From a virus, in the IMG/VR virus record IMGVR_UViG_3300038393_001027, positions 47,152 through 111,151 of that record: 64,000 nt of DNA; one strand, 5' to 3'. The position numbers and the translations under genes are program-made. The notes under the pieces are model-generated. The model searched no databases. It saw only the letters and a program-made list of their open reading frames with translations, and was not told the origin of the DNA. Numbering within the stretch: the first letter of the stretch is position 1; the number at the start of each line of letters is the position of its first letter. Below, one piece after another: positions 35,660 through 52,141 of this stretch.

Positions 35660-36208
35660 ATGTACGACGTCATTCTGACCGATCCACCTTGGAAGTATAA
35701 CGCTGGCTATAAGACCAAAAAGGCTGGTGCCGCCACTGCGCACTACCCTACGATGCGACTAGAAGAGCTAAAAAAGCTCCCTGTTGCCAGTCTAGCGGCC
35801 TCCAACTGCGCTCTGTTCATGTGGGCTACGAATCCCAAGCTGGGTGAGGCTGTTGCACTCATGGAAGCTTGGGGCTTCACATATACCACAGTCGCCTTTG
35901 TCTGGGTCAAGACCTACAAGGACGGGCGCCCCATCTGCGGGCTAGGACACTACACCCGGAGCGCTACAGAGCTTTGCCTGTTGGGCATCCGGGGCAAAAT
36001 GCCCCGTGACGACAACAAGGTTGGGCAGGTCATCTACGATCTGGTCCGGGGCCACAGCCGCAAGCCCGACGCACAGTATGAGCGAATCATGGCTCTCTAT
36101 CAAGGGCGCCGCTACTTGGAGATGTTCGCCCGGCGCCCATGGGAAGGCTGGGATAGTTGGGGGAACCAGATCGAAAGTGCCCTTGATGCAGTTCAGGTGC
36201 TCGGTTAA
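35660..36208 (+). CDS. MT-A70 family N6-adenine methyltransferase
   Basis: DPPW, HYPTM, LFMWAT, WGF.Y...FVWVK, YTRS..E.CLLG, HSRKP, LEMFAR. Confidence 0.92.
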   Translation: MYDVILTDPPWKYNAGYKTKKAGAATAHYPTMRLEELKKLPVASLAASNCALFMWATNPKLGEAVALMEAWGFTYTTVAFVWVKTYKDGRPICGLGHYTRSATELCLLGIRGKMPRDDNKVGQVIYDLVRGHSRKPDAQYERIMALYQGRRYLEMFARRPWEGWDSWGNQIESALDAVQVLG

Positions 36209-36214
36209 AAGAAA

Positions 36215-36236
36215 AACCCCGCCAGATGGCGGGGTT
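36215..36236. terminator. bidirectional terminator between convergent genes
   Basis: AACCCCGCC-AGAT-GGCGGGGTT with an A-tract on the left and T-rich sequence on the right. Confidence 0.8.
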
Positions 36237-36444
36237 ATTTCGTTATCACGTGGCGGATGGTGGGCGCCAGCCGCACCGGGATCTCGACACCCCGTTTGCA
36301 CTGAGGGCACTTTCCGATGGCCTTGCCGTCTGTCCGGAAGGTGGTAAGCCGTGTGAGCAGATGGAGATTCCCTTCCTCATCGCGGGTCATGAGGCTCTTC
36401 CCGCAGTGCGGGCAGGTCTTCTCGTAGTCGCTCACACGGTCCAC
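36235..36444 (-). CDS. small zinc-ribbon protein
   Basis: CPHC...CPQC. Confidence 0.7.
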   Translation of the reverse strand: MDRVSDYEKTCPHCGKSLMTRDEEGNLHLLTRLTTFRTDGKAIGKCPQCKRGVEIPVRLAPTIRHVITK

Positions 36445-36447
36445 CCT

Positions 36448-36699
36448 TTACTTGGAAGTTTGGAGGTACGGGGCCGCCTCAGGCGGCGGGGTGATGTCGT
36501 GCTTCTGCATGGCCGGGGCCAGCTTCTGCCAGATGGCGGCGATCGTCTCTTCACAAGTCTGCGGGTCATGAGCCATTTCCCGCCGGAAGCCGGGGATCCC
36601 CTGCCGGAAGTACTGCACCGTAGCGGCTACTTCCTTGGGACCCTCGTTCTCGATGCCCTTATACATGGCAACGTTGAACCGGGGTTCCTTGTTCGCCAC
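36448..36699 (-). CDS. small hypothetical protein
   Basis: GAGGAGGT RBS; AMYK/G motif near the N-terminus. Confidence 0.7.
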   Translation of the reverse strand: MANKEPRFNVAMYKGIENEGPKEVAATVQYFRQGIPGFRREMAHDPQTCEETIAAIWQKLAPAMQKHDITPPPEAAPYLQTSK

Positions 36700-36705
36700 G
36701 GTGCC

Positions 36706-39700
36706 CTACCTCCTCAGCAAGATAACGTGTGCAAGGTTGCCAAAGGACTTCGCCACGGCCAGTTCCCGTTCCTTCTGGGTGAAGCCGTGCTTCTCTGCCA
36801 GCCGGGCGGCCTGCGCCTCCAACTGGTCGGCCCGGCGGTTCAGGTTCTTCTGATGGACCTTCCAAGCCTGCGTGCTGAGCATTTCCGTGTAGTTCTCGCT
36901 GACCATCTTCCGCTGTTCGGGGTCCCACACCTTGCGGGTGCGCTCCTGATAGCGGTTCTGGGCGTTCTTCCGGACGTCAGCCGCCATCCGGGTCAGCGAC
37001 TCGTGCTTGCGCCGGGCCGCTTCCACCGGGTCAGCCTTGGACGCCTTCTGGGCACCGAAGCGCTTGTGCTCGCCTGCCAGCGCCGCCTTGTAGCCCGGCC
37101 CGGCCGGAACGTCACCGACGAAGCCTTCAGCCGCTCGGGTAGCCTGCTCAACCGCTTGGATGTTGGAAACCTTGCGGTCGTGTGCGTTCAGGATGTCGTT
37201 GTGGATCGTACCCGGAAGGAAGGGTGACTCGACGGATACCGTGTTGTCAGCGCCCAGCGCCGCCCGCTTCCCCTTGGAGTCGGAGCGCCGGGTACGGGCA
37301 ACCTTCTGCGCCGTCTTCTGCGGGTTCCATTCGTGGTCAAGGCTCAGGAACAGTTGGCCTGTACCGAAGTCCTTGCCCTCCTTGGCCGCCGAAGACATGA
37401 TCATAATGTTGGGGCCGTTCCGGTCGTTGAACGTAGCGGCGCCCTGATCACGGGTCACGGCGTCATCCTCACCCGTGTAGGTGGCATGCTTCAGCTTTGG
37501 GTAGTCGCGTTGGATCTCCCGCACGACGTTCTCCAGCACCTTGGTGCCCAGCGCCACGTACTGCGACGACAGGACAATCTTCGGCGGGACTTCTGGCTGA
37601 CCAGCCGCCCGGCGGTTAGCATTTAGCTCTTCAAGGGCGCCCAAGTGCTTGCGGATGCGCTCACCCATCCATTTTGCCATGGGGCTGTTCTTGTGGAGCG
37701 GTACGAACTTCTTGCCATCCATCACACCGTGGAAGCCCGTCTTGGGGTCCGTATGCAGGGCCGCCACAGCCGCCGCCTCAGCGCCTGCGTCAAGCTCGTC
37801 GCCCGCATTCTTGAGCGCCCGTGCGTACTCCGTGTGTCGATGCAGGGCCTCCCAAGCGTCTGGGGCGTTCATGAACTGCTGAAGCTTGTTCACACCAGAC
37901 AGGTAGCCCGTAGCAGATGACCCAGCGGCGTTGTCATAGCCCGTTGCCGCGTCGCCGCGAAGCTTGGAAAGCTCGTTGGCGCCCATCAGGTCCTTCTCAA
38001 GCTTGAAGTACCGCTCGTAGAAGTTCTTGTGGAAGTCGTCTAGCTGGTTCAGATCCGGGGTGTACATGTTGTAGTCGGCGCCCGACTTCAACTGCTCCAC
38101 CTTGGTATTGAAGTGGGGGTGAACCGGGACCTTGGCGCCGTGGAAAGCGTTCGGCTCACCCACAACACCCTCTGGCCGGGCGATGTCAGGGAACTCAACG
38201 CCCACATCCTCACCCTTGCGGAATTGGACGTACTTCGCCAGCGTCTTGCCCAGTTCCTCCATCTTGTCCGGGTGGACCCGGATGACCTTGCCGCCCTTGC
38301 GCTCGAAGAAGTTGTTTAGGAACTCCTCCTTCGAACCAAGCCCGTGCTGGCCCATCGTACCCATGTTGACGAGGTTCCAAAGCTCCGTCGGGTCGTTCTC
38401 CATCGGCGTGCCCGACAGACCCCAGACGTTCTGGACGCCCTTGGCGCCCGCCACATCCTGCAGGGCCGTACCGCGCGAGCCGTCAGGCTTCTTCAGGTTG
38501 TGAACCTCATCCAGTACCATCGTGTCGAAGTCGCCCCCGGTGAACAGGTGGGCGTTCTTGGCGAAGAAGTCCTGCGACACAACGATGACGTCATGGTCCA
38601 CTGTGCTCATGTCCAGTGGAGACTTGTCACTGTGCGCCAGATAGGGCGCCCGCAGGTCCTCTTCTGGTGTCACCGTACCAAACATGCCGCCCCGGCCGCC
38701 GCTAGGACCGCCAACCACGGCGATCTTGACGTTGGTGTGTCGCTTGAACTCCTTCAGCCAGTCCGATCGGATGCCTGACGGCGCCACGATAACGGACTTC
38801 TTCTGGGGCAGACCCGCCGCCTCAGCTTCAGCCATCTTGTCCACGATGCCCAAGACGCCTAGCTGGGTCTTGCCCGTGCCCATGCCGTGTCCAGCGACGC
38901 CACGCTTGCGGGTGCGCAGAAAGTGCACGCCCTGAAGCTGTGTGTCGTAAAACTGCTGGGTGGTCCACTTCTTGGAGTCTTCTTTGAGCAGGCGCTTGAG
39001 CGCTTCCGCCTTCTTCCCGCCCGCCTTGACGATCTCAGCAGGCTGGTACTTGGCCGCACGCTCTTCCTTGGTCAGGAAGCCTTCCGGCCGCGACTGCTCT
39101 TCAAGGTACTTGTTGGTAACCTCGTTGGCCTTGTCGGTCAGGGTGAAGCCGCCAAAGACCTCACGGAACTTGTCGAACTGGGCCAGCGACATCTTGGCCT
39201 GCCCGTTCTTGTCCACGGGGAGCTTCAGGTCCTCCGTGAACGTCTGCCGGAAGGCCTCCGGCACATGGGCAACCAGATGATCCTTGCCCCAGTCCAGAAG
39301 CGGCAGTGAGCCAGTCAGGGTGTCACGCTTGCGCACGTGGCTAAGCTGGGCGTTGTCGGTGCTGACCTTGAAGGTTTGGTCACCAACTCGGACGCGCATA
39401 ACGCCCGTCTTCTCGCCATCATGCACATATTCATGCTCGATGACGCCTTCCTGCCACTTCGACTGGCCCTTCATCCGGAAGCGGATCCCGTTGCCCTCTT
39501 CGTGGGCAACCTTCTTCATGGCCGTGGTCTTGGTCTTTCCCTCAACCAGCTTGCCATTCTTGAACAGGGCCTTTTGCTTCTGCGCCGGGTCAGTTAGATC
39601 CGCTGAATCGGCGTAGAGCATCCCATCCCATGGGCCGCCGACAACGGTTGGGGTCCCCAGACCGTTGAACTGAAGCTGTAGATGGTGGTGGGCGCCCTTA

Positions 39701-42700
39701 CCAGCCTCCCACTGCGAGTTGCTGATCGTCACCCATGCTTTGCGGCCGATCGACTGGGTGATGGCAAAGTCCAGATCAAACTGAGACTGGATCCCGTTTG
39801 GCATGGAAGACGTGTTGAGCAACTGGCGCATCACCGGGTCCGTTAGCTGACCGTCAGCGCCTACATGGTAGGTAGCAATCCGGCCGTCCGGCATGCGCTT
39901 CTTGAAGGTGATCGACCCGTCATCGGCCACTTTGGGTACCAGATCTTCGGCCCGGCTCAGTTCCCGCTTGGCGGCCTTGCGCTGGACGTCGGCGGCGGCG
40001 TTATCCGTCTTCGACAGGACGCCGCTCCATTCATCCTCCGTCAAAACGGCCAGCTTGTGCGTGTCCTTGTCGGCGTAGTCGGCCCCGTACGCCCACTTCT
40101 CCATCAGTTCGGGGAGCATCAAGCCCTTCTTCCCGCCTGTGGTCCCGTGGACCTTATCGTAGGCCTCCTGCCCGCCCTTGGCGTCGTAGAGCATACCCAG
40201 CAGAGCGCCATAGCTCGACTCGTGCTTCGATACACCCTTGCCGCCTGCGTCATCGATGGACCAGACGTCACCCAACTGGGACGTCAAACCCTCGCCGCCC
40301 TTGGCGCCCTTGTCAGCCGCCTTACCCAGCTTGATCTCAAAGGCAACGCGCTTTCCGTTTGGCCCGGTTGCCATGTAGTAGCCGGGCGGCAGATAGCGGC
40401 GGCCTTCTTTGATCTGCTTGAAGTCGTCAGTAGAGCGGAACTGGTCCCGATGCTCCATGAAGCGTCGCCGCAGTTCTTCCACATCGTCCGTTACGTGGGC
40501 GGTCTTGGCGTCACGTGCTGACGCCGCATCCTGCTGGGCAAGCTCTTCCCCAACATCGTCGGTCTTCTCGTGGAAGTCATGCTCGGCCCGGACCTCGCCC
40601 TCATCATCTAGCTCCTGATGCTTGCCGGACTCCGGGTTGTACCCGGAGTCTGCATCACCAGAGTCATAGAGGATGGAAGGATTGTCCCCGCCCTGAATCA
40701 GGATGTGGTGACCGCCCCATGTGATCCACGCAGAACCGGGGTTGTCCTGCAGGAGTTGCTCCGACCAAGTAAGGGCGCCTGACTTCTGGCTGAGCCGCCC
40801 CTGCTGGTCTTTCACATGGGACTCAAATCGTTGGCGGCCTGCACCACGGACCCACTCACGCACCTTCTGGTTGCGCCGGGTCCGATCCACCGCCGACAGA
40901 TGGCCGTTCGTGCCCATCGACTTCTGCAGGAAGTCAGCCGTGCTGATGGCCTTCTCCAGCAGGGAATCCGCCGGGAGGATCGGCTCGCCCAGCGTCAGGA
41001 TGACGCCTTCAGCACCGTGCGCCCGTACAGTCGTCATGATGTACTCAGTTGGACCCAGCCTGTCGGCGATGGCATCCAGCGACTTGACCACGATCTGCCG
41101 GGTGGGCGCCCAGTCACAGACCGACATGTCCAGCCCGTAAGCGGCCAGCGCGTCTTCCAGATCGGACTCAAAGAGCGACTTCAGCAGGGTGTTTCCCAGC
41201 CCAAAGCCCTTCATAACCAGTTCCTTGATGTGGCTAACCGCATCAGGGTTCTTGGTCACGTAGTCCTTCAGCTTCTTCAGACCCCGGCTGTACCGCTGGC
41301 GGGCGTTGTCGTGACTGATGCCCAGCGCCTGCGCAACGGCCGGGAAGTCGATCAGTTCGGCGCTACGCATGCCAGAACCAAGTCCGTGGCGTGCCTGAAT
41401 GACGGCCAGTTCGTTCTTGTCCAGCCCGGCATCGTTCAGGATGGCGTTCAGACCAGCCTTCTGCGCCTTCCGGACCTCGCCCGCCATGGCCTGCCGTTCC
41501 GTGTCGTTCTCACCCGCAACCTGCTCGTGCTTGGCGATGGCCTTGTCGGGGTGATCAGCGTCGGTCACGTTCCGGTCAAGGCTGGTCGTCTTGTTCAGGT
41601 GGTACAGTGACTCCATGGCCGCTACCTTGTCGCCCGTGGCGGTCAGGTACTCACCGCGCTTGCCCGGCTTGAGGAGCTTGACGTCAGCCCACTCAGGCTT
41701 GTTGGCGTCCAGCCAATCCCCGATGTTCGCCCGGTTGGCCGTCTTGCCTTCCTTCTCCAGCGCTGACTTGGCCTGATGGTACATGGCAAGGGGCGCCCGA
41801 AGCTCACGGGGGAGCTTGATCTGGTCGAACATGCCGTTGCCGTAGCGGCTCATCCGCTGTTGGGCTCGGGCGATGGCGTAGTTGGAGGGGTCCCGCAGGG
41901 CCTGCAGGCGCTCCAAGTTGCCGTTTTCCTTGTTCTGGTTCCACTCACGGACGCCTTCCAGCAAACCTGTGCGGAACTCCTGCGCCAAATCGGAGAAGTA
42001 GCCTGTGTCGATGCCGCTGATCTTCTCATAGGTCTGCACGTGGTCCAGACCCTTGGACTGCATGAACTTCTTCGCCATGTGGCGGGTCATGCCTTCCATA
42101 CGGTTCACGAAGTCTTCTTCGGTCACATGTGCCAGCCTCTCGAACTGGATGGGACCGCCTTCATACTCCCGAACCAGCCGGGGAACTTGGCGCCCGGAAG
42201 CGGTCTTTGCCATCTCGATCTTGGGGAGCCTGAAGTCACCCGAGTGCGTGCGGCCTGCGTTCTGCGCGTCGCCGAACATCTCCGCTACCTTGTCCTGCAG
42301 GGTGCCGAAGTCCTCACCTGTGGCCTCCTTCAGGTTGGCAACCTGCTGGGCGGCCTCCTGCTGGATGGTGTCGGGGGTGTTGGTGCCTTGCTTGTACTTG
42401 GCGCCCGTGCCGATGACCTTACCCTCAGCCTTCGTCCGGGTCAGCTTGTTCTCACCCGTCTTCTGGTCGCGGGTCCACGACGCGACCTCGATCGCCGGAG
42501 ACTCCTCGATGCGCTTCTTCTCAGCGGCCTTGCGCTGGCGGGCGGCCGTCTTTTGGGCCTTCTCCTTTGCCGCCGCCGTGCCCTTCTTGTGCGTCTGAAG
42601 CCGCTTGGCCGTCTCCTTGCCCGGCTTCAGCGCTTCAGCGGTCACCTTGGCCGCCTTCTTTACGCCCTTGTCAGCGTTGACCGTCTTGGCGGCGTGCGCC

Positions 42701-42996
42701 TGCTTGATCTCCGTGCGCTTCGCCATGTCAGCCGGAAGCGTCTCCGGGGCGATGGTGCCGTTGGCCCGGATGTAGATGTGGTGTCCCCGCATGGTGCGCC
42801 ACTCACCGCCGGGGTACTTCTGCTCTAAGTTGCTCCGATGTTGCGCTTCGATCTTAGTGGCCGGGGCTGATGCCTTCTTGACTGGGGCCGCCGCCTTCTT
42901 CGCCGGGGTCTTGGTCTTTGACGCAGATTTGGCGGGGGCCTTAGCCCCCGCCTTCTTCGCCGTGACCGCCTTCATCAGGTTGTCAGCGAAACCCAT
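36706..42996 (-). CDS. 2096-aa polyprotein: sigma70-family factor (aa ~290-580) plus SNF2-family ATPase (aa ~1345-1950); putative capsid cargo
   Basis: Sigma: DLAQEFRTGLLEGV, SNYA, IKLP, TSLD, LAVIQARHGL, VAQALGISHDNARQ...GLKKL. SNF2: GMGTGKT, DEVH, LSGTPMEN, EWNP. Confidence 0.85.
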   Translation of the reverse strand: MGFADNLMKAVTAKKAGAKAPAKSASKTKTPAKKAAAPVKKASAPATKIEAQHRSNLEQKYPGGEWRTMRGHHIYIRANGTIAPETLPADMAKRTEIKQAHAAKTVNADKGVKKAAKVTAEALKPGKETAKRLQTHKKGTAAAKEKAQKTAARQRKAAEKKRIEESPAIEVASWTRDQKTGENKLTRTKAEGKVIGTGAKYKQGTNTPDTIQQEAAQQVANLKEATGEDFGTLQDKVAEMFGDAQNAGRTHSGDFRLPKIEMAKTASGRQVPRLVREYEGGPIQFERLAHVTEEDFVNRMEGMTRHMAKKFMQSKGLDHVQTYEKISGIDTGYFSDLAQEFRTGLLEGVREWNQNKENGNLERLQALRDPSNYAIARAQQRMSRYGNGMFDQIKLPRELRAPLAMYHQAKSALEKEGKTANRANIGDWLDANKPEWADVKLLKPGKRGEYLTATGDKVAAMESLYHLNKTTSLDRNVTDADHPDKAIAKHEQVAGENDTERQAMAGEVRKAQKAGLNAILNDAGLDKNELAVIQARHGLGSGMRSAELIDFPAVAQALGISHDNARQRYSRGLKKLKDYVTKNPDAVSHIKELVMKGFGLGNTLLKSLFESDLEDALAAYGLDMSVCDWAPTRQIVVKSLDAIADRLGPTEYIMTTVRAHGAEGVILTLGEPILPADSLLEKAISTADFLQKSMGTNGHLSAVDRTRRNQKVREWVRGAGRQRFESHVKDQQGRLSQKSGALTWSEQLLQDNPGSAWITWGGHHILIQGGDNPSILYDSGDADSGYNPESGKHQELDDEGEVRAEHDFHEKTDDVGEELAQQDAASARDAKTAHVTDDVEELRRRFMEHRDQFRSTDDFKQIKEGRRYLPPGYYMATGPNGKRVAFEIKLGKAADKGAKGGEGLTSQLGDVWSIDDAGGKGVSKHESSYGALLGMLYDAKGGQEAYDKVHGTTGGKKGLMLPELMEKWAYGADYADKDTHKLAVLTEDEWSGVLSKTDNAAADVQRKAAKRELSRAEDLVPKVADDGSITFKKRMPDGRIATYHVGADGQLTDPVMRQLLNTSSMPNGIQSQFDLDFAITQSIGRKAWVTISNSQWEAGKGAHHHLQLQFNGLGTPTVVGGPWDGMLYADSADLTDPAQKQKALFKNGKLVEGKTKTTAMKKVAHEEGNGIRFRMKGQSKWQEGVIEHEYVHDGEKTGVMRVRVGDQTFKVSTDNAQLSHVRKRDTLTGSLPLLDWGKDHLVAHVPEAFRQTFTEDLKLPVDKNGQAKMSLAQFDKFREVFGGFTLTDKANEVTNKYLEEQSRPEGFLTKEERAAKYQPAEIVKAGGKKAEALKRLLKEDSKKWTTQQFYDTQLQGVHFLRTRKRGVAGHGMGTGKTQLGVLGIVDKMAEAEAAGLPQKKSVIVAPSGIRSDWLKEFKRHTNVKIAVVGGPSGGRGGMFGTVTPEEDLRAPYLAHSDKSPLDMSTVDHDVIVVSQDFFAKNAHLFTGGDFDTMVLDEVHNLKKPDGSRGTALQDVAGAKGVQNVWGLSGTPMENDPTELWNLVNMGTMGQHGLGSKEEFLNNFFERKGGKVIRVHPDKMEELGKTLAKYVQFRKGEDVGVEFPDIARPEGVVGEPNAFHGAKVPVHPHFNTKVEQLKSGADYNMYTPDLNQLDDFHKNFYERYFKLEKDLMGANELSKLRGDAATGYDNAAGSSATGYLSGVNKLQQFMNAPDAWEALHRHTEYARALKNAGDELDAGAEAAAVAALHTDPKTGFHGVMDGKKFVPLHKNSPMAKWMGERIRKHLGALEELNANRRAAGQPEVPPKIVLSSQYVALGTKVLENVVREIQRDYPKLKHATYTGEDDAVTRDQGAATFNDRNGPNIMIMSSAAKEGKDFGTGQLFLSLDHEWNPQKTAQKVARTRRSDSKGKRAALGADNTVSVESPFLPGTIHNDILNAHDRKVSNIQAVEQATRAAEGFVGDVPAGPGYKAALAGEHKRFGAQKASKADPVEAARRKHESLTRMAADVRKNAQNRYQERTRKVWDPEQRKMVSENYTEMLSTQAWKVHQKNLNRRADQLEAQAARLAEKHGFTQKERELAVAKSFGNLAHVILLRR

Positions 42997-42998
42997 AG

Positions 42999-44795
42999 TC
43001 AGACCCTCCTCTGCTTGCCCAATTGGGACGGATGGATGATGAAGAGGGATTTCTGGATCCCGTTCTCACCCGTTGTCGGGTTGTAGTAGCGCTGTACACG
43101 GGCACCCGCCGCCTCATGGACCGGGCCGATGAGCAGACCGTGCGGCAGAGCCTGCTCAGCCTTGTAGATGGTCTGAGCGTTCAGGGCGCCCTGCTGGGTC
43201 TGTCCCTTGGCTTGCTTGGCGGCCTTACGTGCTTCATAGCCGCCGGATGCCCCCTGTTGGGACTTCTTCAGGGCGCCGATGTCCTTCCCAGCGGATCCCC
43301 ATGGGTCGCGCTTGTAGTCAGCATCGGACGGGCGCCTGCTGGCGTCAGCCTCCAGCGCCCTCAGGAAGTTCTCCTGTGCCTGCTGATCGAAGACGAACCG
43401 GGTCCCACCCATGTGCTTGGCGCCAACCTTCTGGAAGTAGGGCGCCGTCTCCGTCATGGCGTTGATGACAACCTTCTGACCTTCTGCCTTCTCAAAGACA
43501 GCCGCCAGTAGGCGGGACCCGGCGCCCGGCTGGACGCTCTCGACCCCCCGATGACTGGGTGCCGTCTCCAGATACTCAACAACCATGCCGCTGTAGTTCT
43601 GGTCAGGATGCATCCGGCAGAAGACAAAGCCTGCCCACTCCCCACCTGACTTCAGGCCGATGAAATGATGGGCCTGCTCATAGTGGTCCAAGCTCCCACT
43701 TGCCCGGTCGTCAACCAAATCGACCAGCGCCTTGCCGAAGTGTACTGGGTACTCCCCGGACTCTTCCCAGTCCTCCACAGCCGCGAAGATCTCGTCACCG
43801 CTGGGGTTCTCATAGAGTCCGAAGCCCTTCACCTTGTCGTAGGTTGCCAGTCGCCTACCTTGGGCGCCCTGTTGGGCACTGGAATGGCGGTTGACACCCT
43901 TACCAGTCCCGTCCTTCGGCAGGGTTTTCGGGTCGATGCCGCCTTTGCCGCCATTCACCGGGACCCGGCCCGGCCCGTCCTGTGTCCGGATGGCGCCTGC
44001 GGCGCCCTTACCTGACTGGGCGCCCGGCTTCTGCTTCAGGTCGTCATGCGTCATCATCTGACCCTCTCCGGTCGCCTGCTCTGTTTCCGGCTGGGCCGGG
44101 CCGACTTGGTTGTCAGCCGGGGCCTTCCCGTCGAACTTGGCGGCCTCCTTCTGGGGGTTGGCCGTTTTCTTAACCTGCTTCCACTCGTCTACGTTGCGGT
44201 AGGTCTCGTCGAAGATCTTGCCGTCTACCACCCACTGGTCGCCCCGCAGGCCTTCGACGAGGTAATCCCCGGCCTTGCCGTGCATGACCTCGCCGCCCCG
44301 GTTCTCCAGCGTCTTGACGGTGAAAGGCTCAGTCATCTTCTTCGCCCTGACAACCTCACTGGGGTCCTTAAAGAACTCCTCCCAGCCGTCATCACCTACA
44401 GCAGACCCAGCCGTCTGGCCTCCGCTTCCTGCGCTCTTGTCCGGGCGAAGATCACCTGATTTCGAACCAGAAGCCATTCGACCTCCGGCCGGGGCGCCCT
44501 TGCCTTGGTCCTCATCCGGCGCTTTCTGGGCCATCGACTCTTTTTCCGCCATGCCACGGCGCCCACCCCCCGCCGACTTCAGCAGGTCCACGGTAGCCAG
44601 CGCCTTGATGACGGTCGGGGACCGCAGGTTCATGATGTGGGCCGGGATGTCAGCCCCTGCCTTCTGCAGATCCTGAATGAGCCGGGCCACAACGTGATCT
44701 AGGGCGCCCTGCTCCTCGATCGACTTCACCACAGACGGGGAACGAAGGTAGTCCACCCGCGCTTCCAGATCTGCCTTGCTCGTGCCTACGGCCAT
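42999..44795 (-). CDS. PGDYG-like domain plus GNAT acetyltransferase protein; putative capsid cargo
   Basis: GKAGDYLVEG..G..W.V....F..TY; VEYLETAPSHRG...GAGSRLL...A......YFQKVG. Confidence 0.75.
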   Translation of the reverse strand: MAVGTSKADLEARVDYLRSPSVVKSIEEQGALDHVVARLIQDLQKAGADIPAHIMNLRSPTVIKALATVDLLKSAGGGRRGMAEKESMAQKAPDEDQGKGAPAGGRMASGSKSGDLRPDKSAGSGGQTAGSAVGDDGWEEFFKDPSEVVRAKKMTEPFTVKTLENRGGEVMHGKAGDYLVEGLRGDQWVVDGKIFDETYRNVDEWKQVKKTANPQKEAAKFDGKAPADNQVGPAQPETEQATGEGQMMTHDDLKQKPGAQSGKGAAGAIRTQDGPGRVPVNGGKGGIDPKTLPKDGTGKGVNRHSSAQQGAQGRRLATYDKVKGFGLYENPSGDEIFAAVEDWEESGEYPVHFGKALVDLVDDRASGSLDHYEQAHHFIGLKSGGEWAGFVFCRMHPDQNYSGMVVEYLETAPSHRGVESVQPGAGSRLLAAVFEKAEGQKVVINAMTETAPYFQKVGAKHMGGTRFVFDQQAQENFLRALEADASRRPSDADYKRDPWGSAGKDIGALKKSQQGASGGYEARKAAKQAKGQTQQGALNAQTIYKAEQALPHGLLIGPVHEAAGARVQRYYNPTTGENGIQKSLFIIHPSQLGKQRRV

Positions 44796-44798
44796 GGG

Positions 44799-47700
44799 TT
44801 ACTTCGCCCCCTTCTTGGGCTTGGCGCTGGTGGAAGATTTCTTCGTGGGTGAAGAAGTTCCCTTCTTAGTAGCCGCCGCTTCTGCCATTTCGTAGCCCGT
44901 CTTCTTCGACTTGGTAGTTTTACCCGTTGTGGCGTCTCGGATGATGGGCTTCTTACCCATTACCGAATCACCGAGAGACCCGCTTCCCTTGCCATAGAGC
45001 TTCTCCATGGCCGCCGCGCCCTCAGCCTTGATCTGTGCGTTGCGCTCGGCGTTCAGTTGGCGAGCCGTCTTGGGCTTGGCGGGAGCCTGCTCGGGCGCCG
45101 GGGCCGCCTTACCAGCCTTGACTGGGGCCGCTCCCAGATCCTGTGCCCTTACCTTGGTCCGGGCCGTCTTCGCCATCTCCGACTCAGACTTGGCCGCCGC
45201 CTTGGCGTTCTTGGCGGCCGCCCGCTCGTCAGCCGCCGCCTTGGCCTTGCTGTAGCTCTCCCGCGCCTTCGCCACGGCGCCTGCATCGGCGCCCAGCATC
45301 TCCAACACGTCAGCCACGGTCAGTTTGGAACTCACCTTGTTCGCGTCCACAGACCCATCAGACCCGAACACGTCAGCGATGAGCTTCCCCTTGCGCTCCA
45401 GCACACTCATCTTGCGCTGGTCAATCGAGTCAGCCATCTCAAACTGCTGGTGGTGGAAGTTGCTCTCCTGCCCCTGACGGTAGCCTCGGCCCAGCCGCTG
45501 TTCCATGGCCGCCGGAGTCCACTCGTAGTCCAGATCGATGTGCATGTTGGAGTTGGCCTGCAGGTTCATGCCTTCCGTCCCGGCCTTGGTCATCAGGATG
45601 ACCTTACCTTTGCCCGCGTTGAAGTCGATCTCGGCCTGATCACGGGCCTTCTTCGACGTCGATCCCTGCACATACAGGAAGTCGCTGTCACGGAAGCCAT
45701 GCTCAGCCTTCAACTGCTCCTTCAGGAACTCCAGCGTCCGGGGCGACTGTCCGAAGACGATCGTGCCCTTGCCGCCCTTGTAGTTGTTCTCTTCGTTGGT
45801 ACGTTCCCAGTTTGTGGCGATCTGGTCAGCCGCCTCCGTGATCTTGGGCGATGCATACCCCTTGGTCCGGATCTGCTTCAGGACGGGGTTGGCGGCCTTG
45901 ATGCCCAGCCCTTCCAGCGCCTCCGGGGTGTCGATCAGCCGGGGATCGATGGCGATCTGCTCCAGCCGCATAAGCTGGGTCAGCATGTGCATGTCCACCT
46001 TGGCGGCGCCGTCCATCCCCTGAAGCTCCTCAAGCATGGACCCGCGCAGGTTGCCGTAGAGCTTCTTCTGCGAATCGTCCATGTCCAGAACGGCCACATC
46101 ATGGGTCTTGGGCGGCATGGCGATCTTCACGCGGGGATCCTGCTTCTCCAACATGAAGAAGTAGGGCGCGATGAGCTTGCGCAGGTTCTCGCGCTCGTTC
46201 CCCTTCACGCCGACGACAACCTTGGTCTCGCCGTCACCCTTCAGGTTGGGGATGGTGTCATACTGGGCAAATTTCTGCACGAAGCGCTTCTTTTCACCCA
46301 GTACACCGGGGTTCATGAACTCCATGGCCCGGTAGGTCTCGTCCAGCTTGTTCATCATGGGGGTTGCTGTCAGCCACCATGTGAACTTCGGCGACATGTG
46401 CTCGAAGGCCGCCTTCGACCGGGCGCTCTTGGGATCCTTCAGGTAGTGCGCCTCGTCGAAGATGGCGATGTCGTTCTGCAGGGCGGCCTTGATCTGGGCG
46501 CCCTCGTTGGTCATGATGGCGTAGCTCATGACCACGTAGTCAGCCTTCTTGGCCTCCTTGTACAGGCGCTTGCGCTCCTCCGGGCCGCCGTCGATCTTCA
46601 CAACCTTCTTGCCGTCGAAGAACTTGTGGACCTCACGCTCCCAGCCGCCCAAACGGGACGCTGGGACCACGATGACAGTCGGACCCTTCGCCTTGCCCTC
46701 CTGCTTCAGCTTCTCAGCCGCCAGCAGACTGGTCAGGGTCTTGCCCAGACCCGTACCGAAGCCCAGAACACCCTTCTCGATGGTGTTCAGGTAGTGCACG
46801 CCGGACCACTGGTAGCCATGAGGCTTGATGCCCTTCTTCATGGATTTGATCTTGACCGGATCTTCCACCTGCTGGGCCAACTCGCCCGCCTTCGCCCGGT
46901 CGCCCTGTGACGTCAACTGCTTGTGCAGGGCCGGATGATCCTTCTTCAGGGCGTCCAGCGCCGACTGGTCAAAGCTGAACAGCGGGCCGAACTTATCCAC
47001 CAGCCCGGCCAGTTGCTTGGCGGGGAGCATGTCACCCGGCAACGTCCACCGGGGCTTTGGATAGCTGTCGTAGTAGGCGCCTGTCTTGGCAACGGCGTTC
47101 TTGAAGCTCCGGTGGGTCTTGTCGTTGTTGTTGTAGCCCACCATCTGGATGCGGTAGCTTCCATTTTCGAAGCTGACCGTGGGCCGCAGGCCTCCAGCCT
47201 GCTCTTCCTCGATCTGCTTCCGCTTTTGAGCCAGCCATTCAGCCCCTGAAATACCGCCGGACGGCCCACTTGCGGCCGGGGCGCCCGGCTGGGCCGGACC
47301 ACCTGCAGGCTCGCCCTTGTATGGGGGCGCCTTGGGGTCATGCCGGAAGGCGCCCTTGATGTTGTTCTTGAGCAGGTAGCCCAGTGCCTGCCCCGCATGA
47401 CCGCTGTCGGTCTTGATGGGGATGTGCCAGCCGGGGCTTTCGTCATTCTCCTTCCAGACGCCGCCCATGGCCTTGATCTGGTCCTTGTGCTCGAAGGTGT
47501 TGTTCTTGGCGCCACCCGGCAGAGTCTTTGGGATCACAAGCCAGCCACGGGCGCCGAAGCCATGTTGCTTCTCAACCTGCTTCAGGATGGCCTCAACCTT
47601 GTCACCCATACCAGAGGTGTCCCGAACGGTCGCCGTGGTGCTCGATGACGCCTCAGCCATCACCTCGCGGGCCTTCCGGGCGGCCAGCGTGTGATGCTCG

Positions 47701-47876
47701 TAAGTCATGCCGGGCCATGCGGTCTCGGGCACGATGCGCCCCTTGTGCACGTAGACATGACGCCCGTGCATGGTCACCCAGTGTCCGCCGGGGTACTTGG
47801 ATGATAGTTCCTCACTGATGCCCTTCAGCAGGATGGCGCCCGGCACATAGGTGAGACCTTTGATCAGTAGTTGCAA
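44799..47876 (-). CDS. SNF2-family ATPase with DUF5710/HARP-like N-terminal domains; putative capsid cargo
   Basis: YQ..GV, GTGLGKT, DEAH, LTATPMMN, EGMNLQ, EQRLGRGYRQGQ. Confidence 0.9.
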   Translation of the reverse strand: MQLLIKGLTYVPGAILLKGISEELSSKYPGGHWVTMHGRHVYVHKGRIVPETAWPGMTYEHHTLAARKAREVMAEASSSTTATVRDTSGMGDKVEAILKQVEKQHGFGARGWLVIPKTLPGGAKNNTFEHKDQIKAMGGVWKENDESPGWHIPIKTDSGHAGQALGYLLKNNIKGAFRHDPKAPPYKGEPAGGPAQPGAPAASGPSGGISGAEWLAQKRKQIEEEQAGGLRPTVSFENGSYRIQMVGYNNNDKTHRSFKNAVAKTGAYYDSYPKPRWTLPGDMLPAKQLAGLVDKFGPLFSFDQSALDALKKDHPALHKQLTSQGDRAKAGELAQQVEDPVKIKSMKKGIKPHGYQWSGVHYLNTIEKGVLGFGTGLGKTLTSLLAAEKLKQEGKAKGPTVIVVPASRLGGWEREVHKFFDGKKVVKIDGGPEERKRLYKEAKKADYVVMSYAIMTNEGAQIKAALQNDIAIFDEAHYLKDPKSARSKAAFEHMSPKFTWWLTATPMMNKLDETYRAMEFMNPGVLGEKKRFVQKFAQYDTIPNLKGDGETKVVVGVKGNERENLRKLIAPYFFMLEKQDPRVKIAMPPKTHDVAVLDMDDSQKKLYGNLRGSMLEELQGMDGAAKVDMHMLTQLMRLEQIAIDPRLIDTPEALEGLGIKAANPVLKQIRTKGYASPKITEAADQIATNWERTNEENNYKGGKGTIVFGQSPRTLEFLKEQLKAEHGFRDSDFLYVQGSTSKKARDQAEIDFNAGKGKVILMTKAGTEGMNLQANSNMHIDLDYEWTPAAMEQRLGRGYRQGQESNFHHQQFEMADSIDQRKMSVLERKGKLIADVFGSDGSVDANKVSSKLTVADVLEMLGADAGAVAKARESYSKAKAAADERAAAKNAKAAAKSESEMAKTARTKVRAQDLGAAPVKAGKAAPAPEQAPAKPKTARQLNAERNAQIKAEGAAAMEKLYGKGSGSLGDSVMGKKPIIRDATTGKTTKSKKTGYEMAEAAATKKGTSSPTKKSSTSAKPKKGAK

Positions 47877-47881
47877 CGTTG

Positions 47882-49783
47882 TTACCCCCTTATGCGTTCC
47901 ATACGCTTGCGCCGGGCGTAGCTTGTGTGCCCCATCGACAGGTCAGCCAGCGCCTCTTCTGGGGTCCGGGCGCCCTCGCGTACGTCCCGCGCGGCCTCCA
48001 ACAACGTTCGACGGTTGCTGTTACCCAGCAAGCTGTGCACCTTAGGACCAAGCGCCCCAACGGCGTCCTGATGCAGGGCAGTCGGGCTGTTCCAGAAGTC
48101 CTTCGGGGTCCGGGCGCCCTTCAGCGTGTCCAACACGTGTTGGGCCGCCTCTTGATGCATCTGCCAGCCTTCCTTTGTCGGCAGAGGCTGGAAGTACTCG
48201 TCATCACCACTGTTTCCGACAACATGCGGCATGTCTTCAGCCTGATCATGCAGTGCCTGCAGAACAAACTTCTTCCACGCCACCTTCTCCTTCTTAGCGG
48301 CGTCAGCCAACATGGCCCGGCCATGGGCGCCCGAAGCCTTGGCAGGCTTAACACCAGACACTGCTCCTTGAATCCGGGCAAGCAACCCCTTGGGCGACGT
48401 CGCGTCCTGTAAGAACGTCTGCAGGGATGCCAGTTCCGGATGCCCGGTCACATGTTTAAGCGCCTTGCCCGCCGCCGCCGACACAGCCGCTACGTCCTTC
48501 ATGGGTGCCCGACTGAATTCACCCAGCGCCGCATGAAGTGCTGTGGCCGTCTTCTCTGGGAGCATGTCAGCCGCGTCTGCAATGCTGGCACCCTTACGGA
48601 AGAAGGGCGATCGGGATGCCATGTGCTCCAGCGCCATGGCAAACTTGCCGTGTACAGCGGCTGGTAGGTTGGCGAAAGCCTTGTGTGCGGCCTCTTCGAT
48701 CTGATGCGCATGATTGAACTGGGACTGATCCGCCTTTACCTTGGCCTCACGGGCCTTGGCATCCTGCTGTGCCTCTGCTTCCCGTGCCTTCTGTACCTGC
48801 TCGCGGATCTTCTCAGCGACAGACTCCTTTGGTGTCTTATCAGCTTCAGTCAGAAGACCCTGCTGGCGGGCCAGTGCCCGGCACTTCGAGCACGTTAGCT
48901 GGTGAGCGTCGAACTTTAGACCATACGCCGGGGCTAGGGCGCCAGCGGCATGCACATCAACGCCCCGTACACCGTCAACTTGAAGCGTGCCTACACACGT
49001 GAAGCCGTCCGTGGTCTTGCGTGTCGCCTTGTCCTCGATGCGCTCACCAACCTTGTTACCCTTGGAGTCCCGCAGATGGATGACGTCACGTGAGTCACAG
49101 TACTCCACCTTGATCATGTGGACTTCACTGCCAGCCTTCCCATAGACGCCTAAGAACGTCCCCCGGTGAAGCTCGGGGTAGTTACCGTCAGCGTCTTGGT
49201 AACGCCGCCAACGGCGCCCGCTAACTTCGTCTTCGTACGTGTGCGGATAAGCCTTCAGCTTCAGCTTGCTAAGGTCAGATACACCCTGCAAGGCACCTGT
49301 CGGCCGCTCCTCCGGCTTCAGGTTGGCGAACGGGTCGCCCTTTGCGCCCTTGATGTTGACCTTGGTCGTGACCAGTGCCGTCGTCCCCTTAGACGTGGCT
49401 TTAGCCGGGGCCTTCGTGGCGCCCGGCTTCTTCTTTTCAGCTATGGTCTTCTTGGCCGCCTTGGGGTCCGGGGCCAGTTCAGGCTCGCCCCGGCGCTCGG
49501 CCAGCCGCTGAAGACGTCCCTTGGCCTTGTCTGGCTCCGGTTTGGCGGTCTTTGTCGCGGCCTTGGCCTTGACCGCCTTCGCAGGCTCGGCCTTGGCCTT
49601 GGTAGAGGGCGCCGTCTCCGGCGCCACCTTGCCATTCTTCATGATGTAGACGTGGCGCCCCCGTTCCGTCACCCAGTGCCCGCCGGGGTACTTGGCCTCC
49701 ATCTCCTTGCCGATGCCAGAGGACCGGGCGCCCTTGATGAGGTCCAGAGGGATGGTGTCGAAGCCCTTGATCAGCAGGCGCAC
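47882..49783 (-). CDS. unknown protein with PGGHWVT tag; putative capsid cargo
   Basis: 633 aa; LLIK/G and DLIK/G, then KYPGGHWVTERGRHVYI; Lys/Ala linker; Cys/His cluster. Confidence 0.8.
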   Translation of the reverse strand: MRLLIKGFDTIPLDLIKGARSSGIGKEMEAKYPGGHWVTERGRHVYIMKNGKVAPETAPSTKAKAEPAKAVKAKAATKTAKPEPDKAKGRLQRLAERRGEPELAPDPKAAKKTIAEKKKPGATKAPAKATSKGTTALVTTKVNIKGAKGDPFANLKPEERPTGALQGVSDLSKLKLKAYPHTYEDEVSGRRWRRYQDADGNYPELHRGTFLGVYGKAGSEVHMIKVEYCDSRDVIHLRDSKGNKVGERIEDKATRKTTDGFTCVGTLQVDGVRGVDVHAAGALAPAYGLKFDAHQLTCSKCRALARQQGLLTEADKTPKESVAEKIREQVQKAREAEAQQDAKAREAKVKADQSQFNHAHQIEEAAHKAFANLPAAVHGKFAMALEHMASRSPFFRKGASIADAADMLPEKTATALHAALGEFSRAPMKDVAAVSAAAGKALKHVTGHPELASLQTFLQDATSPKGLLARIQGAVSGVKPAKASGAHGRAMLADAAKKEKVAWKKFVLQALHDQAEDMPHVVGNSGDDEYFQPLPTKEGWQMHQEAAQHVLDTLKGARTPKDFWNSPTALHQDAVGALGPKVHSLLGNSNRRTLLEAARDVREGARTPEEALADLSMGHTSYARRKRMERIRG

Positions 49784-49796
49784 CGGGATCCCCTCC

Positions 49797-50168
49797 TTAG
49801 TACTGCCGATGCACGTACAGCGCCAGCGTGCCTGCCGTAGGCGCCGCCGCCGGAACGAGCTTCAGCCGGATGTACGGATACGCCCGGCCCAGCTTGGGCA
49901 GGTCATCCGTGTCGATGACAGCGATGTTACCTACCGGGTTGGCCTCCACGTTGAAGGCCGCGCCTCGGGATGCCCATGGGCCGTTTACATCATGGGCGGC
50001 CTCCACCGAGACATTCAGGGCCGCATCCAACGTGTCCAGCAGGAAGAGCGAAGCCGCCTTCACGTCAGTGAAAACGATCGGCTGGGTGTAGATGGGGTTG
50101 GTGTTGCGCGGGGAAAGGGTCGTGGTCTCACCGAAGTTGTAGAACGTCTGCAGGACAGTGCTCGACAT
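49797..50168 (-). CDS. small beta-rich virion protein (decoration-like)
   Basis: AAGGAGG RBS; YPYIRLKL...PTAGTL jelly-roll-like pattern. Confidence 0.65.
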   Translation of the reverse strand: MSSTVLQTFYNFGETTTLSPRNTNPIYTQPIVFTDVKAASLFLLDTLDAALNVSVEAAHDVNGPWASRGAAFNVEANPVGNIAVIDTDDLPKLGRAYPYIRLKLVPAAAPTAGTLALYVHRQY

Positions 50169-50170
50169 GG

Positions 50171-51721
50171 TTAATGGCCCTCCTTGTTGGCTAGTTCCGC
50201 TTGGGCGATGGCGCCCGTGTCGTCATTCTCGCCAGCTTCGTCAACAGCCTCTGCGATGCGGGCAGACAGAATAATGATTGGTACATGTTCGATGCCCAGT
50301 TCCAAAGCCGCATACCAGCGATGATGCCCATCTAGGATCATCCGGCTGAAGTCTACCAAGATGGGCGGCATGGCATCTCCTCTCTGGAAGGCCTCACGTA
50401 CCTTTACCAGTTTCGCCGGATTGAGCATCGGGATTTGGTTCTTGTTCGCCCCCAGCGTTTGCGGCGGTACCCAGCAGTTGTAGTAGGGCAGAACAGCCAA
50501 CCGATCTTCAAGATCTAGGTTGTAGTCAAGTCCCTTTACCAGCACGTCCGGGCGCCCGAAGAAGCTCTTGAGGGCCTGCCGCTCCATCAGGATCTCTTCC
50601 GGCGTCTTCAGGTCGATCCGGCCGTCCGGGGTCACCTTCATGAACTTGGGATTGAACCACTGCCAGCGGCAACGGCAGTTGGGGTGGGCCGGAATGCATG
50701 GGATCCAGTCCTTCTTCCGGCGGCCATAGTTGGTCTTGCCGATCCAGACCTCGCGCCACGGGTCGCCGGGCGCCCGGACCACCTTGAAGACCTTGCCGTG
50801 AATGTGCTCCCGGCACCACTCACAGGCGGTCCCGTCCGACTGGCCGATCACCCAGTCGCCCTCTTTGAGGGTAGCAAGGTAGCCGTTCGACATGCACTCA
50901 GCCAGTTCTGTGATGGCGATGCGGCGCCAATCCCGGTTAAACTCGCCCAACTGGTTGAGCAGGGCCTGCCGAAGCTCGTCTGGGGTCCAGCGCCCCCGGC
51001 GGGCCTCGATGACCAGTGACCGCACCTTCTGAATCACGTACTGATTCTGGGTGGCAATCTTTTCTCCTGCATGAAGTTGCGCCCACTTGATGGCTTCTTC
51101 CTCAAGGTTCGTCATGGGCAGTACGGGCTGGTCTGGGGCGCCCTTGTCAGCCCGCAGGCGGTACTCCTTGCCCGGCTGGGGCGCAGGCATCTGCTTGCGG
51201 GCACTGACGGTCACAGGTAGCTCCGGCATGAAGATCTGGGGGAGCTTCCGGCCCGCCCGGTCAAAGGCGCTCATCAGGGCGGCCAGTGCGTCAGCCTTGA
51301 TGATGTAGCGGTCGGCCAGCGTTGCGTTCTTGGCGAGCCCCTTGCGCAGGAGCTTCTCAATCTCGGCCAACTCAGCGGCGGTCCATGCCTTTCCGTCCCG
51401 CAGGTACTTGATGACGGACTTGGGCAGGTACTTGTAGCGCATCAGGTCGTCATGGGCGCCCTTGCTCAGGTTGATGGTGATGCCCTTGCCCAGCGGCTCA
51501 GGGCTGTGCATACCGTCTGAGTCAAAGTGCAGGGCTTCAGGCGGGGCGCCCAGTCCCAACTGATCGATCAAGTGCATGATGGTGACTGTGGTCGCATCCA
51601 TGAACTCCATGTAGGTGGCGTCTTCCAGATCAGCCCATGCAGGGTGCTGGTCGTTGCGTGTCCAGATACCCCCTAGGGTATCATCTAAGGTACTCAACGT
51701 GACTCCAAACGGATATGGCAT
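50171..51721 (-). CDS. MuF/gp7-like head morphogenesis protein with C-terminal ParB-like domain
   Basis: RIAITE, CEWC, PAHPNCRC; PPILVD...ILDGHHR. Confidence 0.88.
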   Translation of the reverse strand: MPYPFGVTLSTLDDTLGGIWTRNDQHPAWADLEDATYMEFMDATTVTIMHLIDQLGLGAPPEALHFDSDGMHSPEPLGKGITINLSKGAHDDLMRYKYLPKSVIKYLRDGKAWTAAELAEIEKLLRKGLAKNATLADRYIIKADALAALMSAFDRAGRKLPQIFMPELPVTVSARKQMPAPQPGKEYRLRADKGAPDQPVLPMTNLEEEAIKWAQLHAGEKIATQNQYVIQKVRSLVIEARRGRWTPDELRQALLNQLGEFNRDWRRIAITELAECMSNGYLATLKEGDWVIGQSDGTACEWCREHIHGKVFKVVRAPGDPWREVWIGKTNYGRRKKDWIPCIPAHPNCRCRWQWFNPKFMKVTPDGRIDLKTPEEILMERQALKSFFGRPDVLVKGLDYNLDLEDRLAVLPYYNCWVPPQTLGANKNQIPMLNPAKLVKVREAFQRGDAMPPILVDFSRMILDGHHRWYAALELGIEHVPIIILSARIAEAVDEAGENDDTGAIAQAELANKEGH

Positions 51722-51744
51722 GGGGTCTTCCTCCTCTGTCTGCA

Positions 51745-52130
51745 GATAAACCCTTGAAAGGCTACGGACTGGTGCGATTTGACGATTTCACTTTTGAAAA
51801 TGGCCCCCCTACCCCCTGAGGTACAAAATAAAAAACGCCGGGGATTTTTATTTTTATTTTTCACGGCTCAGAAGCGACGAAGTGTGCGCCCCTCAAAGTT
51901 GCCGTGTTCGTAGACTTTCAAAGGGTAATGATCTCACCGCTCGCCGAAAAGGTAGTACCGTACCCCGGCCCGGCCCGAAACATACCCCCGGAGGGTACAG
52001 GAAGAGCCTAAGAGAATGCACACTGATGATGATAGATATGAATGATGATCTATCTCTATATCTATCTATATCTATCTATATATATCTATATATATAGATA
52101 TGCTGGAGTGTGTCAGAAAATTCTTGCGTA
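51745..52130. repeat. non-coding element B, inverted diverged homologue of 6965-7335
   Basis: Same ordered blocks on the opposite strand; TA/CTAT microsatellite at 52049-52101. Confidence 0.8.
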
Positions 52131-52141
52131 ATAAGGCAAAG

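Follow-up and report, generated by a model that had tools for sequence, protein, structure and literature searches.

Prohead protease-type sites mark the ends and joints of candidate capsid cargo in an uncultured soil phage

The 64,000-nucleotide stretch of DNA analyzed here (the window) corresponds to bases 47152–111151 of the 111,151-bp IMG/VR record IMGVR_UViG_3300038393_001027, which comes from an uncultured soil phage. Between the portal gene and the prohead protease–scaffold gene lies a minus-strand cassette of approximately 16 kb (36215–52172 of the window, terminator to terminator). It encodes, in this order, a MuF-type head protein joined to a ParB-like domain (MuF-ParB), a series of proteins named here after their length in residues (p123, p633, p1025, p598, p2096 and p83) and a 66-residue zinc-ribbon open reading frame (ORF). 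The ends and joints of the cassette's enzymes bear the capsid protease motif, and the enzymes are therefore probably loaded into the head, trimmed there and injected. The motif is concentrated at the N-termini of the candidate cargo proteins, at two inter-domain junctions and in two C-terminal tails, and the first gene of the cassette encodes the MuF-type head protein. On balance, we consider it probable that the cassette encodes head-internal, ejected cargo of the polyvalent kind, spread over several genes and trimmed by the prohead protease. An earlier note on this DNA had proposed a capsid-cargo system; the motif signature, the domains, their placement and their conservation lend that proposal partial support, and packaging, cleavage and ejection are steps that we infer.

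The presumed processing enzyme of the cargo is the prohead protease–scaffold fusion (33900–35621, minus strand), which matched phrog_1028 (5e-45) and phrog_15087 (5.9e-22). Its protease domain is 34% identical to SPO1 gp3.2 (E 6e-24) and 39% identical to Gp94 of phage 812 (E 8e-26); a PDB sequence search with the protein returned nothing useful. Protease and scaffold form one reading frame here and in a relative, and are separate genes in SPO1, SP-10, A511 and 812. Translation of the gene probably begins downstream of the TTG that was listed as its start; the gene of the relative starts later, just ahead of a conserved EIRPEDRLVWGVEITK/S (a slash marks the actual or predicted cut). The major capsid protein (32412–33857, minus strand) matched phrog_752 (3.9e-84) and SPO1 Gp6.1 (PDB ID: 9vel; 1.3e-63), with LNKAL kept. 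Its predicted cut, AELNK31/ALGT, has counterparts in SPO1 (DALNK/ALEA), SP-10 (NLNK/ALEA), 812 (EDVVK24/SFQT) and A511 (EDALK23/SFTT), where equivalence means a match of sequence pattern and N-terminal position. The Lys/Ser cut of the A511 capsid, which the earlier note had named, agrees with the RefSeq mat_peptide annotation in NC_009811.2, in which the mature protein begins at Ser24, after EDALK23. For 812, the full chain (PDB ID: 5lii) exceeds the mature one (PDB ID: 9row) by 24 residues, which fits EDVVK24/SFQ. No direct cleavage-site data from Herelleviridae proteomics were found in the literature.

The motif [LIVM]xK[SAG] occurs 15 times in the protease–scaffold protein of this phage against 1.9 expected from composition, an 8-fold excess. 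It is similarly frequent in SPO1 (scaffold, 11 against 1.2 expected; protease, 8 against 1.3), SP-10 (scaffold, 8 against 1.3; protease, 8 against 1.0) and the scaffold of 812 (7 against 1.2). The scaffolds of SPO1, SP-10 and 812 are enriched 6- to 9-fold, and the neck and tail proteins are near expectation. The claim that the motif is a prohead protease signature is thereby borne out in the scaffold and protease of this phage and of its cultured relatives: hydrophobic-x-Lys followed by Ser, Ala or Gly is the predicted cut-site mark of the SPO1/812/A511-type protease family.

Every site that the earlier note had listed is present. They are K9, K596, K606, K638, K682, K692 and K2083 in p2096; K24, K45, K64, K73, K511, K545 and K582 in p598; K6 and K18 in p1025; K6 and K17 in p633; K79, K87 and K396 in MuF-ParB; and K41 and K683 in the portal. 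A further listed site, ALK385/S of MuF-ParB, lies outside the [LIVM]xK pattern but is like the A511 capsid site. In this loose form, with expected counts again from composition, the motif occurs 36 times in the cassette against 22.3 expected, a 1.6-fold excess (Poisson p=0.005; local-shuffle p=0.002) that is carried by p598 (7 against 2.4) and MuF-ParB (6 against 1.5). The tail and neck proteins have 16 against 14.5 expected, and the other proteins 54 against 44. Placement, and not the count of the loose motif, carries the signal. A site is found within the first 25 residues of 5 of the 7 cassette proteins and of 10 of the 114 others (Fisher p=2.7e-4), in placement windows that were picked after the data had been seen; the leaders of p633 and p1025 are paralogous and therefore not independent.

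A refined motif, [LIVM]xK[SAG][LIFVM], was obtained with the protease–scaffold protein as the training set, the P2′ preference being taken from the scaffold alone. It occurs 20 times in the cassette against 4.9 expected (approximately 4-fold; local shuffle P<0.002) and 10 times against 0.5 in the scaffold-protease itself; the tail proteins have 5 against 3.8 and the other proteins 20 against 13.3. The seven refined sites of p2096 are exactly the seven that had been listed before. They are confined to the N-terminus, the junction between the sigma-like and SNF2 parts and the C-terminus, with none in the sigma-like body or in the helical SNF2 part of approximately 1400 residues, and at least five of the seven fall inside 100 residues (P=4.7e-4). 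The enrichment over tail proteins that had been suggested as a check is thus seen with the refined motif and in N-terminal placement, the loose excess being modest. The proposal that the sites mark termini and domain junctions stands for N-termini and junctions, with conservation in distant homologues; C-termini are not significant alone. A 12-position scoring matrix (PSSM) built from the scaffold was rejected as a predictor, since it was overfitted and ranked the capsid site low.

All of the cassette genes are on the minus strand. MuF-ParB (516 residues; 50171–51721) combines a MuF (SPP1 gp7-like) part with a ParB/Srx-like part, both identified by PHROG matches. The MuF part (residues 247–352) matched head morphogenesis/minor head protein families of PHROG (E 5.8e-7 and 2.8e-5), with Pfam Phage_Mu_F missing E 0.01; the ParB-like part matched at E 4.6e-7. 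The protein contains HPNCRC at residues 345–350, a type of motif that we take to be a mark of the MuF family, as well as DGHHRW. The tandem sites ALK385/SFF and LVK396/G lie between the two domains, and the former resembles the capsid sites of both A511 and 812. The next protein, p123 (49797–50168), has no sites and is kept in a relative (a122). The large protein p633 (47882–49783) consists of a leader (MRLLIK/G..LIK/G), a tag described below (residues 27–59), a Lys/Ala-rich linker and a body for which no match was found in Pfam, PHROG or the ESM Atlas. The SNF2 ATPase p1025 (44799–47876) has a similar leader (MQLLIK/G..LLK/G) and the same tag (residues 23–55). It matched SNF2-rel_dom (3.4e-37) and Helicase_C (8.6e-16) in Pfam and phrog_62 (2.9e-80), and its helicase part alone gave a weak DarB-like PHROG match (phrog_10089, 3e-9).

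In p598 (42999–44795), four sites lie within the N-terminal 75 residues, including two LRSPxVxK/[SA] repeats. These are followed by a PGDYG domain (5.9e-6), low-complexity linkers, a GNAT-like domain and a C-terminal tail with three sites; there are no sites between residues 74 and 508. The GNAT assignment (Acetyltransf_1, 1.1e-3) is borderline, its 19.7 bits falling just short of the 20.7 cut-off. The PGDYG region also matches 26 separate stretches of P0005, a metagenomic protein of 3743 residues that is a giant PGDYG repeat protein.

The largest protein, p2096 (36706–42996), joins sigma-like, Myb/HTH and SNF2 parts. It starts with a leader ending at K9/A, followed by a first tag (residues 56–89), a Lys/Ala-rich linker and a sigma-70-like region (approximately 294–580). 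The remainder comprises a site-rich junction (594–692), a second tag (approximately 753–780), an unassigned region and the SNF2 ATPase (1340–1905), and the protein ends with VAK2083/S and a hydrophobic tail. The junction (residues 594–693; 40918–41217) holds five refined sites in approximately 100 residues and, in a poor AlphaFold2 (AF2) model, has a predicted local distance difference test score (pLDDT) below 50, with better predicted flanks. Residues 294–579 align with TIGR02937 over positions 4–164 of 165 (E 3.3e-5; 23.6 bits, under the 42.9 cut-off) and the region matched Sigma70_r4 (E 0.0016); PDB sequence searches with it gave no match. The sigma-like assignment is coherent at the level of profile matches, though under the curated thresholds. 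The tag and unassigned regions of p2096, like the body of p633, matched nothing in Pfam at E≤1. The start of p2096, MGFADNLMK/A, resembles the start of the SPO1 portal, MDFFESLSK/A, and the K/S sites with β-strand-like tails of p2096 and p598 resemble portal C-termini (LTK/SITIEILE in this phage and VSK/S..FLRIEIE in SP-10); the cases are too few for statistics.

Two small genes complete the cassette. One encodes p83 (36448–36699), with a site at MYK14/G, and the other the zinc-ribbon protein (36235–36435), with two CxxC pairs and weak zinc-ribbon Pfam matches; both are kept in the relative. The latter ORF was missing from the earlier list of cassette genes. The domains listed there are for the most part borne out: two SNF2 domains are strong and the ParB-like match is good at the E value given above, the GNAT domain is borderline and the sigma-like region of p2096 is below threshold. 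No peptidase domain was found in the cassette proteins with Pfam or PHROG.

The tag, KYPGGxWxTxxGxHxYI...PET, is common to p633 (49607–49705; 77.6 bits in hmmsearch), p1025 (47712–47810; 70.7 bits) and p2096 (42730–42831; 76.4 bits), all on the minus strand. A diverged second copy in p2096 (PGSAWITWGGHHILI; 40657–40740, minus strand; 9.2 bits, domain E 0.006) aligns to the second tag of a metagenomic protein, P0157. Over the whole genome, the tag profile matched only these three proteins. An AF2 model of the N-terminus of p633 shows a disordered leader (residues 1–12), two helices and a β-hairpin at residues 36–47 with a pLDDT of approximately 83. Against 5.8 billion proteins, the profile found only nine carriers. 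Five of these (P0153 and P0156–P0159) are independent of the present clade and combine the tag with PARP/ART, LPD1 and HExxH, with GNAT, with ParB, or with sigma and SNF2 domains; P0153 is the one with ART, an HExxH motif and LPD1. The tag is frequently internal in these five proteins. A site lies at most 30 residues upstream of 7–8 of the 10 independent tags, against 1.6–2.6 expected (P ~1e-4 to 7e-4), and two sites frequently stand in tandem. For the refined motif, the five proteins have 19 occurrences against 5.1 expected, including the capsid-like LNK/AL in P0158 and P0159. The order of site and then tag is a composite module conserved in polyvalent-type proteins, and this coupling is the strongest evidence that is independent of the window. 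Elsewhere the tag is rare. A single 2.4-kb fragment was found in the JGI metagenomes, and there was none in GTDB genomes or in cultured phages and plasmids. No Pfam family matched it at E≤1, the LPD families of Iyer et al. 2017 included, and the ESM Atlas gave no usable match to the leader and tag of p633.

The portal, protease, scaffold and capsid genes follow one another directly in the cultured phages SPO1, SP-10, A511 and 812 as well as in L014, an uncultured relative, and the cassette is absent from this place there; because of this adjacency, we regard it as an insertion confined to a small clade. Single-protein searches of IMG/VR found two further contigs with the cassette, both from sample 3300037467, and no close DNA relatives were found among cultured phages. 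The metagenomic protein P0157, with sigma region 3 and SNF2, is 26% identical to p2096. Both proteins keep the leader site K9, an LxK/A after the sigma HTH and the second tag, and both end in [LA]AK[SG] and a short hydrophobic tail. P0157 scores above the Pfam Sigma70_r3 cut-off (27.6 > 25.3), with SigB/FliA/RpoD matches at ~2e-6. In P0004, which is 67% identical to p598, 5 of the 7 sites are kept, LKK/S having turned into LEK/A in one case, and the whole PGDYG module is lacking. An exhaustive HMMER search with p598 returned two relatives and otherwise matches to the PGDYG domain alone. The sole distant homologue of p633, P0002, is alike only over the first ~150 residues (leader, tag and linker), and the bodies are unrelated. 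One of the cassette-bearing contigs, IMGVR_UViG_3300037467_000469, has extra cassette genes between its MuF-ParB and p123 homologues (5324–9600). They encode a 404-residue protein with NWPxGF repeats, a 732-residue protein and a 154-residue protein that begins like a signal peptide and contains HEVGH, and these extra proteins carry no N-terminal sites.

The concept is not new in kind, since polyvalent proteins, the capsid targeting sequence (CTS) of T4, the Dar proteins of P1 and the ejection proteins of phiKZ and SPN3US came earlier. Polyvalent proteins are encoded beside packaging genes and were predicted to be injected (Iyer et al. 2017, PMC5512222). Their processing was proposed to occur mainly by autoproteolysis of zincin-type MPTase domains; fusions to assemblin-like peptidases were briefly noted, with processing supposed, and the word "sigma" is absent from that paper. 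The cassette resembles them in carrying MuF, SWI2/SNF2, ParB-like and GNAT effectors near portal–terminase and head genes, and several of its proteins are multi-domain (MuF with ParB-like; PGDYG with GNAT-like; sigma-like with Myb/HTH and SNF2). Of the polyvalent hub domains, SNF2, MuF and ParB-like are present, and MPTase, ART and a fused methylase were not found with Pfam or PHROG. It differs in that the cargo is divided among several genes, each with its own leader, and in that processing is read here from the cut-site statistics of the phage's own trans-acting prohead protease.

The T4 gp21 protease cuts after Glu (L/I-x-E). The T4 proteins IPI–III and Alt are directed into the scaffold core by a short N-terminal CTS that is removed at the protease motif, and after injection this cargo acts on host defences and RNA polymerase (PMC3012670). 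At the sequence level, the cassette proteins likewise share an N-terminal signal ending at a protease motif, and the leaders of p633 and p1025 can be aligned. Unlike in T4, the cut here would come after Lys, the cargo is large (516–2096 residues, with internal junction sites) where that of T4 is small, and a folded β-hairpin tag would stay on the mature product; no PHROG or Pfam match to the T4 IP or Alt families was found in the cassette proteins. In P1, the packaging signal of the 250-kDa DarB is its N-terminal 30 residues, the protein reaches the cell along with the DNA, and darB adjoins portal and protease genes (PMC9024508, Gonzales et al. 2022). The cassette similarly codes for a very large helicase-type protein near portal and protease genes, but its cargo has no methyltransferase domain and no homologues of DarA, Hdf, DdrA/B or Ulx, and its proteins share an N-terminal consensus that the P1 Dar proteins do not have. 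By its sequence features, the cassette would work like the T4 and P1 systems, yet it lies outside both families. In SPN3US and phiKZ-like phages, head-internal proteins that include transcription machinery are cut by the prohead protease (gp245) and ejected (PMC10052503, PMC7411985); those phages are jumbo, with another cleavage motif and a multisubunit virion RNA polymerase, whereas the present phage has a sigma-like factor and 111 kb. With the Herelleviridae (SPO1 gp3.2, gp3.3 and gp6.1; A511 Cps; 812 Gp94–96), it shares a homologous protease, scaffold and capsid and the Lys/Ser or Lys/Ala pattern of the capsid cut. It differs from the cultured members examined in the presence of the cargo cassette and in the single protease–scaffold polypeptide.

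If the cassette encodes trimmed capsid cargo, its products would be synthesized together with the head proteins and drawn into the scaffold core, MuF by way of the portal and the other proteins by way of leaders, tags or C-terminal tails. The activated protease would then digest the scaffold, take 31 residues off the capsid protein and strip leaders of 6–18 residues from p633 and p1025 and 9 residues from p2096. MuF would be parted from ParB near K385/K396, and a split of p2096 in the K596–K692 stretch would yield a sigma-like product of approximately 65 kDa and an SNF2 product of approximately 155 kDa; the short hydrophobic C-terminal tails would be clipped. The products would leave the head together with the DNA and be the first to act in the infected cell, where the sigma-like part may redirect host RNA polymerase to phage-specific promoters and the SNF2, ParB-like and GNAT parts may act on DNA or host defences.

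Such a phage would carry a ready-made enzyme set, consisting of two SNF2 motors, a sigma-like factor, an acetyltransferase and a ParB-like nuclease/NTPase, and this set would be at work ahead of all phage gene expression. The rules of loading and release would be legible in the sequence, as a Lys/Ser, Lys/Ala or Lys/Gly site that is often doubled, with a β-hairpin tag ~10 residues on. The general prediction made for polyvalent proteins would become a directly testable mechanism, uncultured phages would gain an annotation route for injected proteins, and foreign proteins might be loaded into phage heads with the module as a candidate tag. A bolder possibility, which we put forward only tentatively, is that sigma-like and SNF2 parts are packaged as one 2096-residue precursor, cut in the head and injected to retarget host RNA polymerase to phage-specific promoters as soon as infection begins. 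Beside virion RNA polymerases, as in N4 and phiKZ, and injected modifiers such as T4 Alt, this would be a third way to take over transcription immediately, with the cut site and the KYPGG hairpin forming a portable loading and processing module for any protein into Herelleviridae-like capsids.

Several points weigh against trimmed capsid cargo. The phage is uncultured, and the case is built on sequence alone. The motif by itself is weakly specific: hydrophobic residues at i/i+4 around a Lys are given equally by an amphipathic helix, and approximately ten PSSM hits outside the scaffold-protease outscore the capsid's own site, about half of them outside head and cargo genes. The loose motif is near chance in total in p2096, p1025 and p633, and C-terminal sites, found in 2 of the 7 cassette proteins and 7 of the 114 others (p=0.085), are the ones that lack significance alone. 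P1′ is mainly Gly in the leaders and Ser in the scaffold, and two of the p598 sites are missing in P0004. The AF2 model of p2096 residues 200–800, made with three sequences, had a pLDDT of 47, too poor to delimit domains or to serve in a fold search. The comparative base is thin, with two related contigs and five context-free proteins. The cassette is also a separate transcription unit, and the phage-specific promoter motif TGTCACA-N-GTAC was not found in its leader (51722–52142).

The last of these points would suit an accessory module of intracellular enzymes for transcription, DNA remodelling or anti-defence that was inserted between head genes and never enters the virion, which we consider unlikely. 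The cassette with its own terminators, the early-type promoter and the opposite-strand methylase gene that show non-structural insertions in the head region, and the site-free genes a404, a154 and a120 in the cassette of the relative are all in keeping with it. The small loose excess would then come from Lys-rich amphipathic helices and shared leader ancestry. Such an account leaves aside that the cassette opens with a MuF-type head protein, and that the refined motif is 4-fold over local shuffles, clustered at the termini and junction of p2096 and absent from its SNF2 body. Sites are kept at 26% identity, and the coupling of site and tag recurs in independent proteins. If the sigma-like domain reads early promoters, as we suppose, a copy made from the cassette could not start an infection unless it was delivered.

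It is distinctly unlikely, in our estimate, that the proteins are packaged and ejected but left uncut, with leader, tag and C-terminal K-S-hydrophobic tail serving as docking signals for the scaffold, the portal or the capsid interior. The likeness to protease sites would then follow because the scaffold would use the same short helices. The DarB signal is N-terminal (PMC9024508) and the N4 virion RNA polymerase is packaged unprocessed (PMC5512222); the portal-like leader of p2096 and portal-like tails of p2096 and p598 described above fit docking, and the second LIKG of p633 is helical in the AF2 model. Cleavage is favoured by the same motif being the annotated or structure-inferred cut in the A511 and 812 capsids, by tandem sites 8–12 residues apart in linkers of variable length, which look more like a short linear cleavage motif than a folded docking unit, and by the capsid's LNK/AL site being copied inside P0158 and P0159. 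That a different protease, host-encoded or autoproteolytic, does the processing is highly improbable. Autoprocessing by zincin-type MPTase domains was proposed for polyvalent proteins (PMC5512222), and the tag relative P0153 has HExxH and LPD1; the cassette proteins of this phage contain no detected peptidase domain, and the motif that they carry is the one found in the scaffold and capsid substrates of the same phage.

Nearly every gene of the window is on the minus strand, and the terminase large subunit (TerL), portal, cassette, protease–scaffold, capsid and tail genes all share it. TerL (61606–63369) comes first in transcription order. The portal (56591–58666, minus strand; phrog_12, 8.6e-43) has LIK41/A and, at its C-terminus, LTK683/S with the ITIEILE tail. 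Neck, sheath, tape measure and baseplate genes lie downstream of the capsid gene. The head and tail proteins are distantly related to those of Herelleviridae, and the capsid protein is 34% identical to those of SPO1-like phages. Between portal and cassette there are eight small genes (52200–56491, minus strand), a set closed by a strong intrinsic terminator just upstream of the cassette (52143–52172, minus strand; 13-pair stem with 9 GC pairs, then a T run). The leader that follows (51722–52142, minus strand) is ~400 bp of non-coding DNA with no ORF, an AT/ATAG microsatellite and hairpins, and presumably contains the cassette promoter. The large cassette genes are separated by 2–6 bases only, as a tightly packed operon between two terminators, the second of which is bidirectional (36215–36236; 9-pair stem with 7 GC pairs, T runs on both strands). 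A gene for an MT-A70 family N6-adenine methyltransferase (35588–36208, plus strand; Pfam 7.3e-32, DPPW motif) sits on the opposite strand between this terminator and the protease–scaffold gene, and splits the cassette from the latter. It was preferred over an ORF at 35942–36310 (minus strand), which was dropped. In the relative 000469, an equally long gap is found where the MT-A70 gene would be.

The "direct terminal repeat" of the record is only a 104-bp overlap (1–104 and 111048–111151) with a 31-bp step (42, 73, 104), and looks like overlap from an assembly that is circular or permuted, and not like a physical repeat. The unique length of ~111 kb, against 132–144 kb in the records of cultured relatives, is no more than suggestive of spare room in the capsid. 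The cassette leader contains one of two inverted non-coding copies of a ~400-bp element that are 78% identical (51745–52130, minus strand; 6950–7350, plus strand). Both have the AT/ATAG microsatellite, conserved hairpins and an A-rich/T-rich block, and the second copy adjoins the 3′ end of a minus-strand gene. The window contains TGTCACA-N-GTAC six times, with 0.14 occurrences expected. Immediately behind the portal gene, one of the six (56560–56586, minus strand) stands at the head of the eight small inserted genes, the last of which (52200–52760) gave a sub-threshold Pfam match to Tad2-like Thoeris anti-defence proteins (E 0.004).

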